Notes: generated by a model from the letters alone, not told the origin. DNA of 64,000 nucleotides from Escherichia coli (GCF_003790525.1 NZ_CP033635.1), one strand, 5' to 3'. Positions 54,529 through 58,974 are shown, numbered from the stretch's first letter. Made by a program: numbers and translations.

Positions 54529-54559
54529 GAGTTCCTGTCTTAAGCCACTTGCCGAAGTC

Positions 54560-54576
54560 AATTGGTCTTACCAATT
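54560..54576 (-). promoter_or_regulatory. PdhR operator palindrome
   Basis: AATTGGTCTTACCAATT, perfect palindrome matching the known PdhR box, 32 bp upstream of the pdhR start. Confidence 0.8.
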
Positions 54577-54983
54577 TCATGTCTGTGACGCTAAAGTAAC
54601 AAAGTATTCACCTTATGTCCATACAGGTTTTGATTGAAATCATGAAACTGTGCACATTTTAACAACTTGACATATATAACGTTTCAAAGTTGTAACTATG
54701 CACAAATGTTAAATTTACCCACCACGGGTTATGATTAACAGAATTGAAACGAAAAAATATTTCTTCTGAACCGATTCACCAAGCAACAAAACGCATAACA
54801 ATTCAATTATGTGAATTAATATGTAAAATGAATGTTCAGGGAAGGAGAGAAAGGTAGTATTTACCTATGTTTTCTTTTTACATTGCTTATTATCACTGCA
54901 ATCGCCACCGTAACCTTCTCGTAGCGAAAATCATCACTTAACCAGAACGTGATGATTTTCAGGTGACAGATTCTGTTTAGAGT

Positions 54984-55280
54984 TCATTCTGAATCTTTGA
55001 ACAAAGACAATCCTTGCGAACGCCGCCATTCTTTGACGATTTTCAGGATGTTTTCAGGTTTACCATCTTCTGGGGAATTAGGATAGAAAATGAGATCTCC
55101 CTTTTTAGGATGTTCAGTAATTTTAATGAAATGATCCACTAAGGTATCGAGATATTTTTCTAATTTTTTCCCTTTTAGGGATTTATCTTTGCTAGTTGCA
55201 TTTACTATCTCCTCAAGCATTTCAAGAAATTCACCTTCTGTGTAAAAATATATTTTGTATTTTAAATCATGCATATACAT
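54984..55280 (-). CDS. Colicin-E9-type DNase immunity protein (Im9-like), copy 3
   Basis: 98 aa; F(Y)TExEFL...HF..ITEHP..GDLIFYP...ENILKIVKEWRRSQGLSLFKDSE; start overlaps the stop of the upstream toxin fragment. Confidence 0.75.
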   Translation of the reverse strand: MYMHDLKYKIYFYTEGEFLEMLEEIVNATSKDKSLKGKKLEKYLDTLVDHFIKITEHPKKGDLIFYPNSPEDGKPENILKIVKEWRRSQGLSLFKDSE

Positions 55281-55327
55281 TATCTCCTGTAGTGAATTTC
55301 ATCATGTAGTCGAGGCGTAACAATCCT

Positions 55328-55516
55328 TTAATTATCAATATCATAAATTTCGCCACCACATTCAATCGCAACACTATGATATATATGGAATTCTTTAACA
55401 ATTTCCTTAGAGCCATAATACCAACCTTCAAGAGGCGCTTTTGCGATTAATCCTTGTTTTATACGTGTTTGGTTACCAGTTGAAAACTGCGCTATCAACT
55501 CCGGATACTGACTCAC
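55328..55516 (-). pseudogene. Orphan HNH DNase toxin tip fragment 2, truncated by a premature TAA
   Basis: GTG-initiated 62-codon ORF (V)SQYPELIAQFSTGNQTRIKQGL...EIYDIDN*; the next frame-continuous codons read RIVTPRLHDEIHYRR*, i.e. the lost end of the HNH motif. Confidence 0.65.
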
Positions 55517-55682
55517 CTCCAGCCAAAGGGTATCGGTGAAAGCGGGAAATTGATAAAATAACCTAATGAGATTTCAGTATTTTACCTGTTTTTTAAGAGC
55601 ACCCACATTATTATTTTATGTTATTAACATCATCGCATTAGCCAGACGCGATGATGTTCCATATATAGTTTTATTATCTACT

Positions 55683-55973: not shown

Positions 55974-56213
55974 TTAACTATCTCCTGTAATAAATTTCAT
56001 CATGCAAATGAGGTGTGCCCTCCTTAAATTATCAATATCGTAAATTCCGCCACTATATTCAATCGCAACACGATGATATATGTGGAATTTTTTAACGATT
56101 TCTTTAGTGCCATAATGCCAACCTTCAAGTGGTGCTTTTGCGATTAATCCTTGTTTTATACGTGTTTGATTACCGCTTGAAAACTGCGCTATCAACTCCG
56201 GATACTGACTCAC
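55974..56213 (-). pseudogene. Orphan HNH DNase toxin tip fragment 1, 3' frameshift
   Basis: 79-codon ORF homologous to the Hcp-ET C-terminus up to DIDNLR, then out of frame (RRAHLICMMKFITGDS); the -1 frame reads ...HLHDEIYYRR*. Confidence 0.65.
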
Positions 56214-56380
56214 CTCCAGCCAAAGGGTATCGGTAAAAGCGGGAAAATGATAAAATAACCTAATGAGGCTTCAGTATTTTTACCTGTTTTTTAAGAGCAA
56301 TCACATTATTATTTTATGTCATTAATATCATCGCATTAGCCAGATGCGATGATGTTCCATATATAGTTTTATTATCTACT

Positions 56381-56665
56381 TTATTTAGAGTCTTTAAACA
56401 AGGGTAACCCCTGTGAACGCCGCCATTCTTTGACAATTTTCAGGATGTTTTCAGGCTTATCATCTCCTTGACTTTTAGGGTAGAAAATGAGATCGCTCCC
56501 TGACGGATGCTGTGTAATTTCAATAAAATGATCTACTAATGAATCCCAGTACATTTCTAGCTCCTTACCTTTTAAGGATTTCCCATCTTTCATAGATGAT
56601 CTCAATCCGCCTAAAAAATTAAGAAATTCATCCTCGGTATAATCCTGGAGCTTTTCTTTAAACAT
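56381..56665 (-). CDS. Cognate DNase immunity protein (Im9-like), copy 1
   Basis: 94 aa MFKEKLQDYTEDEFLNFLGG...ITQHPSGSDLIFYPKSQGDDKPENILKIVKEWRRSQGLPLFKDSK, resembling colicin E9 immunity protein; immediately after the toxin stop. Confidence 0.8.
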   Translation of the reverse strand: MFKEKLQDYTEDEFLNFLGGLRSSMKDGKSLKGKELEMYWDSLVDHFIEITQHPSGSDLIFYPKSQGDDKPENILKIVKEWRRSQGLPLFKDSK

Positions 56666-56667
56666 AT

Positions 56668-58449
56668 TTATCTCCTGTAGTGAATCTCATCGTGTAGTCT
56701 GGGGGTAACAATTCGTAAATTATCAATATCGTATACGCTGCCGCCATATTCAATTGCAACACGATGATGTATCTGGAATTTTTTAACTATTTCTTTAGGG
56801 CCATAATGCCAACCGTCAATAGGTGCTTTTGCGGTTAATCCTTGTTTTATACGTGTTTGGTTACCACTTGAAAACTGCGCTATCAACTCCGGATCCTGAC
56901 TCACCTCCAGCCACAGCGCCTCGCGAAACTCATCAAAGGTTTTAAACTCCCGTCCGCGCAATTTATCAGCAATATGTGCCGGGATTGGTGCGCCGTTGCC
57001 GTTATTGGATACCGACATATCCAGCCAGCGAGTTCCTGGTGAAAGCGGGACGCCGCGCCCTGTTACAACACCAGGCAGCTTTCGCGGATCCTCCTTCAGG
57101 TAAACATAGATGGGCTTAATACCGGATCCCGCCGGAAAAACCAGAATATAATCGTTGAATTCTTTCGGATCAGGAACCGGGAATGGCGGCGTGCTATAGG
57201 TATCAGTGCCGTCCGGAATCGGCGTCACCAGAATGGTGGGCTGCTCCAGCGGCGGCCTGTCGTTACCGGTATGGCCCGGAACATTCCCATGTTCCGGATT
57301 TTCCGGCGTCCAGGTAATCAGGGGGCCATCGACATCGTGAGCGGGGGTAAATTCATAACGCTGCGTCTGCTCGTTCCACTGCATGTTCGCCACGCGGACG
57401 TTTTCATACGGCGTACCTTCACCCGTATGAACACCATACACCTGAGGCTTGCCGTGAATGTCAGTTCCCCAGAAAAAACGTACCCGGGTGGTGGCGGTAC
57501 TGCCTGCTAGTGCTTTCTGCTGCAGTTCTTCCTCATACCAGAACTCATCACGTCCGGGCACGCGAGCACTGCCCTCGCCCGCAGAGGGAATATACAAAGC
57601 AGATGCCAACGCACCGATGTAAGAGCCGCGGGTTGCACTGAGTATGCCACTGAGCGACCATTTTCCCCATATTTGAGCCGCCAATACGCTACCCGGAAAC
57701 AGTAGCATGGTTTGAGCTTCTGCGGGTTGCCCGACATCGTTAGCCTCGGGATGGTGGTATCCACAGCAGTCATCAACCACTGGCAGAGCAAAAATCGCTA
57801 CTTGCCCGAAGTTTTCAGCGGGTTCTTCTGCCGTTCCGGCATCTGTACATCCCTTCTCCTTCAGACAGGATTTGGCATAGACCGGTTTAACCGCTGGTGG
57901 AGAGAGTGGAAGGTTAACAACTGGTAGAGGCTCAGGGTTAAGATTACTGGCAGGTGGGTTTTTAGGTGGAATAAATAAGCTATTATGGCCAGCAGGAAAG
58001 GCCAACCAGTCAAATTCCGTATTGGCTATTAGATGTTTACATAATATGTAGTCATAATCGACAGTTACACATTCGGTAGGAAGATTATTGTCAGAAATGT
58101 TTACATGAATAGCAGTTAATGAAGCATTTCTTAGCTGAATATAATAATACCGTTCCCAGCGCCCGCTTTTATTTATACGATACAAATCGATTTCAATAAA
58201 TAACCGCTCATTCTGATTGATGGCATTAGACAGTAGCGGTGAGCTTTTATCAATGAGTTTGCAAAATTGTAGCCCCTGCAGATTAACGCCTTTACCAGTA
58301 CTGGTAATGGTGTTGGTGAGTGCAAAGGCAAAAATTTCATCTTCATGGCCAACCTGCCAGCGATTACCAACCGACGCATACGTCCCACAGCCTGAAGAAA
58401 TATCGCCCTGCTTCTCACCGATTATTCTCAGGTAAACAATATCGCCCAC
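56668..58449 (-). CDS. T6SS Hcp-ET effector: N-terminal Hcp domain, pyocin-S-like middle region, C-terminal colicin-E9-type HNH DNase
   Basis: 593-aa ORF (GTG start). N-term VYLRIIGEKQGD...GHEDEI...FCKLIDKSSPLL...LYRINKSGRWERYYYIQLRNA...TEFDW is Hcp-like; C-term GAPIPAHIADKLRGREFKTFDEFREALWLEVSQDPEL...FQIHHRVAIEYGGSVYDIDNLRIVTPRLHDEIH aligns with the colicin E9 DNase domain. Confidence 0.82.
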   Translation of the reverse strand: MGDIVYLRIIGEKQGDISSGCGTYASVGNRWQVGHEDEIFAFALTNTITSTGKGVNLQGLQFCKLIDKSSPLLSNAINQNERLFIEIDLYRINKSGRWERYYYIQLRNASLTAIHVNISDNNLPTECVTVDYDYILCKHLIANTEFDWLAFPAGHNSLFIPPKNPPASNLNPEPLPVVNLPLSPPAVKPVYAKSCLKEKGCTDAGTAEEPAENFGQVAIFALPVVDDCCGYHHPEANDVGQPAEAQTMLLFPGSVLAAQIWGKWSLSGILSATRGSYIGALASALYIPSAGEGSARVPGRDEFWYEEELQQKALAGSTATTRVRFFWGTDIHGKPQVYGVHTGEGTPYENVRVANMQWNEQTQRYEFTPAHDVDGPLITWTPENPEHGNVPGHTGNDRPPLEQPTILVTPIPDGTDTYSTPPFPVPDPKEFNDYILVFPAGSGIKPIYVYLKEDPRKLPGVVTGRGVPLSPGTRWLDMSVSNNGNGAPIPAHIADKLRGREFKTFDEFREALWLEVSQDPELIAQFSSGNQTRIKQGLTAKAPIDGWHYGPKEIVKKFQIHHRVAIEYGGSVYDIDNLRIVTPRLHDEIHYRR

Positions 58450-58974
58450 TTTATTTCATTCCAGTTTATCCTTAACTTATTTGCATTAAATAGAAAACTT
58501 ATTTCTCGATCAATTATAAACGCTTTTAATGAAAATTTATTTCTTTTACTTAACGTTTTCACTCATCTCGCAATATTATATTTAAATACTTACGTTACAA
58601 GCCCACCGCATTATTAACATCTATTTATTTTTATATGACCTTTTGTAAGATTATTGTGCTGGTGGCTAAGGCATGGTGTTCAGCAGGCAGACAAATCCGG
58701 CATATAGCTAGTTAAAACAGTATGTTATCAGACTTAAAGTATCTATTAAATGTGATGAAAAACTTACAATTGTTTTTTTTTTATCCAGAAAATCAACACA
58801 TCTACATAAAGCAGGTGCATTCTCGCGCACATACCATTATCTTGTGATAGTTAAAAGTAGCATTATCATAATTCAGTTACATGAAACGTAAAGAAATCAA
58901 TACAATAAACGGAATTGCAAACTTACACACGCATCACTGCGTAGATCAAAAAAACAATCACCGCACGAGGTTTC

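Follow-up and report, generated by a model that had tools for sequence, protein, structure and literature searches.

The toxin and immunity island between pdhR and aroP of an Escherichia coli genome is very probably PAIusp, in a lineage with no detectable type VI secretion system

In a stretch of 64,000 nucleotides of Escherichia coli DNA (GCF_003790525.1, NZ_CP033635.1), hereafter the window, the housekeeping genes pdhR and aroP are separated by an unusually long interval, whose extra DNA is very probably PAIusp, an island made of the Hcp-DNase toxin gene usp and the immunity genes imu1-3 (also named orfU1-3). We place the probability of this identification at about 0.93. The gene usp is a standard virulence marker of extraintestinal E. 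coli. The original prediction, made from the sequence of the window, had described a polymorphic-toxin island at this site, without recognising it as PAIusp. The island is already known in nearly every respect, since its position, domains, nuclease activity, immunity genes, published subtypes and promoter are covered by earlier work; according to this literature, knowledge of PAIusp goes back to 2000 (Kurazono 2000; Nakano 2001; Rihtar 2020, PMC7142922). The window is 100% identical to the corresponding locus of E. coli SMS-3-5, for which RefSeq lists the same six genes. This host is an environmental strain of phylogroup F (sequence type ST354), not a B2 uropathogen.

PAIusp consists of usp and imu1-3 and is always located between aroP and pdhR (Rihtar et al. 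2020, PMC7142922), which is the position occupied here. Six minus-strand open reading frames (ORFs) fill the interval, namely usp (hcp-ET), imm1, orphan DNase tip 1, imm2, orphan DNase tip 2 and imm3, and this predicted content and order agreed with both the ORF list and the RefSeq annotation of SMS-3-5. The first ORF encodes a protein of about 593 residues that combines domains of Hcp, S-type pyocin and colicin nuclease type and is nearly identical to Usp (98.3% aa identity with the UTI89 protein, whose gene has the same neighbours in UTI89). Where two or three imu/orfU genes are expected downstream, three PF01320-type genes were found. Expression of usp is driven by the aroP P3 promoter, with a -10 hexamer TGGTAT; TyrR activates P3 and usp, and control by H-NS has also been described (PMC7142922). 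Both the hexamer and a TyrR-box-like site were present at the sequence level (Table 1), and general promoter and terminator scans of the island returned no more matches than shuffled sequence. Published GC values for PAIusp are 49, 36, 38 and 38%, and the published domains are of Hcp, pyocin and colicin type (PMC7142922). Here, the GC content was 40.2% in the interval against 50.6% in the window, and was distributed as a mosaic: the immunity array stands at 35.6%, the Hcp region of usp at 40%, the centre of usp (linker and Pyocin_S) at 53.8% and usp as a whole at 48.9%. The predicted AT-richness is thus only partly correct.

The start codon of pdhR was placed at 54528 (minus strand) by alignment with K-12 and that of aroP at 58975 (plus strand), leaving an intergenic region of 4446 bp (54529-58974). 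In K-12 MG1655, the same interval measures 540 bp (end of aroP at 121551, start of pdhR at 122092), in agreement with the 4446 bp and roughly 0.5 kb given in the original prediction. Borders were mapped against K-12 with blastn and pairwise alignment in Python. On the pdhR side, K-12 matches the flank 54371-54709 at 100% and identity stops at 54709; this flank holds the PdhR operator exactly at the predicted position. On the aroP side, K-12 identity stops at 58888, with weaker similarity reaching 58805. About 4.1 kb of the window stands in place of about 189 bp of K-12 DNA and, as anticipated, the extra DNA is absent from K-12, from which the locus differs in both spacing and gene content. No target-site duplication was seen at the borders in this alignment, and a clean insertion was rejected on this ground together with the replacement of about 189 bp of K-12 sequence. 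As had been claimed, neither the ORF list of the interval nor the genes that RefSeq annotates for the same DNA in SMS-3-5 included an insertion sequence (IS), integrase or transposase gene. A 12-mer, GTGAATCGGTTC, located at 54768-54779 and about 60 bp inside the pdhR-side border, also occurs in that part of the aroP-pdhR spacer which is specific to K-12. It hints at residual homology just inside this border and suggests that the DNA there may be diverged homologous spacer and not foreign sequence.

The large ORF had been interpreted as an Hcp-fused DNase, and searches with hidden Markov models (Pfam, NCBIfam) and against PDB sequences supported the Hcp, DNase and immunity assignments. The N-terminal domain (aa 1-146) reached 122.6 bits with NCBIfam TIGR03344 (TssD), for which the cut-off is 58.9, and was also recognised by Pfam T6SS_HCP (aa 28-139) and by similarity to the Hcp protein 6a2v of PDB (E 4e-15). 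The Pyocin_S domain was detected with E values of 3.9e-40 (Pfam) and 6e-18 (PDB 3mfb), and the DNase domain with 1.2e-41 (Pfam Col-Pyo_DNase). PDB matches to the C-terminus comprised colicins E9, E7 and E2, pyocins S2, S8 and AP41 and klebicin G, with E values of about 1e-28 to 1e-31 for colicins E9/E7 and the pyocin DNases. The HH...N...H...H motif of colicin/pyocin HNH DNases is in place, with HH at residues 561-562 followed by DIDN...RLH...EIH, and the accompanying immunity genes are of PF01320 type. The protein also has the layout of an Hcp-ET effector, with a Hcp/TssD domain at its N-terminus and a C-terminal toxin domain next to an immunity gene. Nuclease activity of Usp and its dependence on the HNH motif have been demonstrated experimentally (Zaw et al. 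2013, PMC3685522). Usp has been called an "evolved Hcp" (Blondel et al. 2009) and listed among polymorphic toxins (Jamet and Nassif 2015). Pyocin_S was assigned to inner-membrane translocation in a study that draws Usp as a type VI secretion system (T6SS) example (Atanaskovic et al. 2022, PMC9040868), and is called a second toxin domain in a review of Ma et al. 2017 (PMC6730261). Nuclease bacteriocins use this domain to bring the nuclease through the inner membrane. The ORF list, Pfam searches and RefSeq annotation gave no receptor-binding domain, Tol/Ton translocation domain or signal peptide in Usp, and no lysis gene; with uptake domains and lysis gene missing and a chromosomal locus, a colicin in the strict sense was rejected, although the toxin kills by a domain of colicin-like action.

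The three small genes had been predicted to encode colicin/pyocin-type immunity proteins, and database matches supported this assignment. The product of imm1 matched ImAP41, Im7 and Im9 in PDB (E 2.5e-20 to 1e-15) and is 100% identical to that of UTI89 imm1, while imm2 and imm3 were recognised by Pfam Colicin_Pyocin (PF01320) with E values of 3.6e-28 and 4.7e-27, respectively. Tips and immunity genes were compared among SMS-3-5, UTI89, CFT073, NQ3 and one ST131 strain (2019_APHA), and the immunity genes fell into three classes, here labelled A, B and C, with 56-70% identity between classes and 94-100% within; imm2 (class B) shares 65% aa identity with class A. The class A gene imm1 is presumed to be the cognate immunity gene of the adjoining Usp. 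In strain Z42 (uspI), the product of the orfU gene directly downstream (OrfU1), a possible counterpart of class A, inhibits Usp by forming a tight complex with it (PMC3685522). In another study, protection by individual imu genes was poor, and Imu3 bound DNA and did not bind Usp tightly (PMC3917654). The two papers disagree on the protecting gene, OrfU1 being sufficient in one and any single gene protecting poorly in the other, a conflict that may be explained by different usp subtypes or gene numbering.

Table 1. Features of the pdhR-aroP interval, in window coordinates
Feature	Coordinates	Strand	Identifier or basis
DNA without clear K-12 counterpart (island, broad sense)	54710..58804	.	K-12 alignment
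usp (= Hcp-ET3-4; PGAP name tssD), 593 aa, intact	56668..58449	-	RefSeq WP_000502514.1
Hcp (TssD) domain, N-terminal, aa 1-146	58012..58449	-	TIGR03344, T6SS_HCP, PDB 6a2v
Pyocin_S domain, aa 309-450	57100..57525	-	Pfam E 3.9e-40; PDB 3mfb
Colicin/pyocin-type HNH DNase domain, aa 460-591	56677..57072	-	Pfam Col-Pyo_DNase
imm1 (imu/orfU), immunity class A, adjoins toxin	56381..56665	-	PDB matches
Orphan DNase tip 1, pseudogene	55974..56222 (ORF 55974-56213)	-	Three-unit DNA alignment, translations
imm2, immunity class B, orphan immunity	55683..55973	-	Pfam Colicin_Pyocin
Orphan DNase tip 2, pseudogene	55275..55525 (annotated ORF 55328-55516)	-	Alignment, translations
imm3, immunity class C, orphan here	54984..55274	-	Pfam Colicin_Pyocin
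aroP P3 promoter (divergent), -10 hexamer TGGTAT	58831..58836	-	Motif search
TyrR-box-like site TGTATTGATTTCTTTACG, 9/12 consensus positions	58887..58904	.	Retained aroP regulatory DNA
PdhR operator AATTGGTAAGACCAATT	54560..54576	.	In K-12-identical housekeeping flank, outside island

The 3' end of usp with imm1 and the two blocks that follow form three units of about 692-699 bp each. Homology between usp and the orphan tips starts at TGGCTGGAGGTGAGTCAG, which encodes WLEVSQ(D/Y)PEL. By comparison with the colicin E9 sequence FWEEVSKDPEL, this is the presumed start of the immunity-binding site, and an alignment with klebicin G was consistent with this placement. Each orphan tip comprises the specificity region and the HNH motif, corresponding to the last 80 or so DNase codons, with nothing upstream. 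The two short ORFs had been proposed to be truncated DNase C-termini, and the three-unit alignment and the translations confirmed this view. Both are mutationally dead, pseudogenised DNase 3' ends. Tip 1, which shares 84.4% nucleotide identity with the main tip, has a 1-bp deletion that shifts the frame after DIDNLR and a catalytic HH changed to YH; tip 2 has a TTA to TAA change that creates a stop after DIDN, and its first catalytic His is likewise replaced by Tyr (HH to YH). Nucleotide identity between units was 84-88% in the DNase tips, 60-66% over the first 195 or so nucleotides of the immunity genes, 79-94% over their last 90 nucleotides and 94% in the spacers. The units thus consist of a variable core with conserved blocks on either side that would be able to recombine. 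Tandem Repeats Finder reported no repeats, the units exceeding its 500-bp period limit. Two nearly identical minus-strand ORFs of 40 aa (MSKNGGVHRGYPCLKTLNKVDNKTIYGTSS...), at 56314-56436 and 55616-55738, overlap imm1 and imm2 at their 3' ends and are most likely a mere by-product of the repeated conserved block.

Of 5426 complete E. coli genomes, 1058 carried the island, in every case on the chromosome; UTI89, 536, CFT073, ATCC 25922, Nissle and ST131 are among them. Array length varies, with 2, 3 or 4 units per island. Among the compared strains, the main toxin tip is of at least three types: alpha in SMS-3-5 and UTI89, next to a class A gene; gamma (67% identical to alpha) in CFT073, next to a class C gene; and delta (77% identical to alpha) in ST131 and NQ3, again next to class A. 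Outside the last 79 residues of Usp, every compared segment is at least 91% identical (95-100% except for the NQ3/ST131 linker). Published subtypes comprise two variants of the usp 3' end, each of which goes with an adjacent orfU of its own, and islands with two or three orfU genes (PMC3685522). The last 79 aa of the ST131/NQ3 protein differ from the SMS-3-5 tip (56668-56904) at 23% of positions, and many of these fall within the stretch presumed to bind the immunity protein; even so, the immunity gene next to it is of class A, with 97% identity. Either class A is broadly protective or specificity is located elsewhere.

The order of elements in CFT073 is informative with regard to how such arrays may grow. 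Downstream of its gamma tip and class C gene lie an intact orphan tip, which hardly differs from the main tip of SMS-3-5 and UTI89 (78 aa with the full HNH motif, 2432-2668 of the examined stretch), and then a class A gene. The occurrence of an intact older tip with its class A gene downstream of a new tip gives direct evidence that cassettes are displaced, the layout being the footprint left by a new cassette that pushed the old one downstream. A functional toxin cognate to class B was sought beside the main gene. Class B adjoins the main toxin in only one of the 1058 genomes (NR1441), where the annotation marks usp as frameshifted and a single unit of the array is left (1862-3937 of the examined stretch); this candidate was rejected, NR1441 looking like a collapse by recombination of the main gene with a dead orphan tip. 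Taken with the strains compared, the window shows the 5'-truncated toxin fragments, distinct immunity genes and shared homology breakpoint of an orphan toxin-immunity array, without usable intact orphan tips, both tips of the window being disabled and the NR1441 recombinant a pseudogene. In CU568-3 (O25:H4), an IS66-family element splits usp (5651-9930 of the examined stretch) and leaves a four-unit immunity array intact, a natural "immunity-only" state of the island.

The original prediction had also held that an orphan Hcp effector implies a T6SS elsewhere in the genome, and this expectation failed for SMS-3-5. UTI89 carries complete T6SS clusters at aspV and metV. At the aspV site of SMS-3-5 (225001-275000 examined), yafV directly follows aspV and there is no T6SS; the metV site (2990001-3040000 examined) has only a five-gene phosphotransferase system (PTS)/sugar cluster, which in UTI89 flanks the T6SS. 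No tss genes were present in GI-pheV (92 kb) or on plasmid pSMS35_130 (130 kb), and the other SMS-3-5 plasmids are only a few kb each. A megablast search was run with a chimeric query that joined a 3-kb anchor from the window to tssC of four kinds (UTI89 aspV, UTI89 metV, EAEC 042 Sci-1 and EAEC 042 Sci-2). At a sensitivity limited to nucleotide matches of about 85% identity or more, it found the anchor alone, and no tssC of the four kinds, in the SMS-3-5 chromosome and in about 20 near-identical relatives. The same query matched in three places in APEC O1, IHE3034 and ExPEC XM and in two in Nissle. Cross-detection between T6SS kinds is poor at the nucleotide level, the aspV-type and metV-type tssC sharing only a 90-bp match at 70%. 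At this level and for these four kinds, the secretion apparatus that should accompany an Hcp-ET effector was therefore missing from the same genome. The literature search returned no direct statement on a T6SS in SMS-3-5, and IAI39 and CE10, which are grouped with SMS-3-5 in a clade sister to B2, were reported without tss genes (PMC4765171).

The SMS-3-5 lineage is exceptional among usp-positive genomes. When the anchor consisted of usp only, at least one tssC was present in 34 of 36 evenly sampled usp-positive genomes (about 94%) against 697 of 4368 usp-negative ones (16%), an association that fits a T6SS-dependent use of Usp. The Usp Hcp domain came closest to an additional hcp located distally in the aspV T6SS cluster of UTI89 (39.6% aa identity; 8429-8908 of the examined UTI89 stretch), the other hcp of this cluster being only 26% identical, and blastp gave no alignment of this domain with the Hcp proteins of the metV cluster, Sci-1 or Sci-2/AaiC. 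This similarity hints that an aspV-type T6SS might be the apparatus that delivers Usp. Inspection of SMS-3-5 also revealed an apparently complete lateral-flagella (Flag-2-type) cluster near 255-275 kb, where UTI89 has only a remnant, and, on the IncF plasmid pSMS35_130 (79244-84083), a colicin M gene with its immunity gene and truncated colicin V and colicin B genes with immunity genes, so that PAIusp is not the only bacteriocin locus of this strain.

A working model can be proposed for strains that possess a T6SS, in which Usp would become part of the Hcp tube, or travel with it, and be shot into an adjacent bacterium. Pyocin_S would then help the DNase to reach the cytoplasm of the target, where DNA would be degraded; that this domain does the same job after T6SS delivery as in a pyocin is inferred by analogy. 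In the producer, the adjacent immunity protein would block the DNase. The orphan units are read as remnants of earlier tip and immunity cassettes displaced by recombination at the conserved WLEVSQxPEL site, and the orphan immunities may keep the cell immune to Usp variants of other lineages. Such protection is plausible, since the class C gene of SMS-3-5 is 94% identical to the toxin-adjacent immunity gene of CFT073. In SMS-3-5, where no T6SS sheath gene was detectable, Usp is most likely undeliverable, and the island would probably serve mainly as a defensive array, or be used independently of a T6SS.

Several points weigh against this picture of a T6SS-delivered toxin with its immunity genes. 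Poor protection by single imu genes and DNA binding by Imu3 (PMC3917654) fit simple cognate immunity badly. The co-occurrence of usp and T6SS is confounded by phylogeny, both being found mostly in phylogroup B2. In the review of Ma et al. 2017, T6SS-dependent delivery is stated only for Hcp-ET1 and Hcp-ET2, not for Hcp-ET3-4 (PMC6730261). Finally, a very divergent T6SS could escape detection in SMS-3-5, where absence was deduced from four tssC types, three hot spots and one plasmid.

How an intact usp came to persist without a T6SS can be explained in several ways. An intact usp with three immunity genes and no T6SS was found in SMS-3-5/ST354 and a few other lineages, or about 5% of the sampled usp-positive genomes. 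One tentative explanation is that the gene is a not-yet-decayed remnant of a recent T6SS loss, with selection acting on the immunity genes only or not at all, or with retention by addiction. The lack of tssC in SMS-3-5 and its close relatives agrees with this scenario, as do the orphan tips, which are already pseudogenes, and the decay states encountered elsewhere (usp frameshifted in NR1441 and disrupted by IS66 in CU568-3). However, usp of SMS-3-5 is full length, 98.3% identical to its UTI89 counterpart and intact in its HNH motif, and about 20 independent isolates of the lineage share it unchanged. It is just as possible, and held no more firmly, that retention is selected, either through a T6SS-independent activity or export or through conservation of the immunity array as a defence against Usp-armed B2 neighbours; if the latter were true, the toxin gene would be carried along, for instance as the source of the operon promoter and 5' part.

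A more general proposal, which we consider unlikely, is that Usp works mainly without a T6SS, as a bacteriocin-like genotoxin that leaves the cell by another route and damages mammalian cells, its Hcp domain being a relic or having another role. Usp has been stated to be genotoxic to mammalian cells (PMC7142922; Jamet and Nassif 2015), Blondel 2009 wrote that it seemed "not linked to T6SS function", evidence for its secretion was described as lacking (Jamet and Nassif 2015), and the SMS-3-5 lineage (about 20 genomes) has kept usp intact without a T6SS. Yet the Hcp domain lies well above the TssD family cut-off, 34 of the 36 sampled usp-positive genomes have a T6SS against 16% of the usp-negative ones, and signal peptide, lysis gene and colicin-type receptor or translocation domains are absent; the review further calls UTI89 Hcp-ET3-4 an antibacterial Hcp-ET T6SS effector (PMC6730261). 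A T6SS of SMS-3-5 too divergent for nucleotide searches and located away from the inspected sites is very improbable: an unknown fifth kind would indeed be missed, given how little the aspV and metV tssC share (90 bp at 70%), but the four kinds gave no match while controls did, three classical insertion sites and the large plasmid were negative, and IAI39 and CE10 of the clade sister to B2 are reported to be without tss genes (PMC4765171).

Beyond the identification of PAIusp, these data call for caution in genome scans, an orphan Hcp-toxin fusion alone being no proof of a T6SS in the same genome. They also provide a sequence-level account of the orphan tips as dead, displaced specificity cassettes that start at the presumed immunity-binding site, together with useful population numbers (1058 carriers among 5426 genomes, arrays of 2-4 units, and a T6SS in about 94% of sampled carriers). 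Comparable arrangements are known from the orphan tip-immunity arrays of Rhs and CdiA loci and from the T6SS immunity arrays of Vibrio cholerae, which are explained by effector displacement. As generally described, these likewise combine truncated toxin 3' ends with their own immunity genes, a conserved breakpoint and downstream displacement. In contrast, a usp unit is very short, with a length of about 700 bp, the dead orphan tips of this genome offer no usable reservoir, and recombination with an orphan, which was observed once (NR1441), destroyed the toxin.

Other known systems share parts of the toxin. VPA1263 of Vibrio parahaemolyticus, a MIX-domain T6SS DNase effector, resembles Usp over its C-terminal two-thirds (linker, Pyocin_S and HNH DNase). 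Usp residues 206-590 align with the corresponding NCBIfam family NF047924 (E 1.3e-62), but at 212 bits the score falls far short of the cut-off of 900, and Usp, which has Hcp and not MIX at its N-terminus, is not a member. Colicins E2, E7, E8 and E9 and pyocins S2 and AP41 have the same HNH DNase fold and motif and PF01320 immunity proteins with the conserved DLI(F/Y)YP helix III, from which Usp differs by its lack of receptor-binding and Tol/Ton domains and of a lysis gene, by its chromosomal and not plasmid-borne locus, by delivery as an Hcp fusion and by its tandem immunity genes. Hcp-ET3-4 of UTI89 (UTI89_C0121) is the same gene under another name: the review of Ma et al. 2017 (PMC6730261) describes Hcp, Pyocin_S and colicin DNase domains, three immunity paralogues and antibacterial effects, and SMS-3-5 differs by the lack of a detectable delivering apparatus. 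The closest counterpart is PAIusp of uropathogenic E. coli, which has the same site, 593-aa protein, three immunity genes, P3 -10 hexamer and GC pattern. An environmental phylogroup F host (ST354) without a detectable T6SS sets the SMS-3-5 island apart in nothing essential, and the published usp 3' variants and orfU numbers match the tip and array variation seen here.

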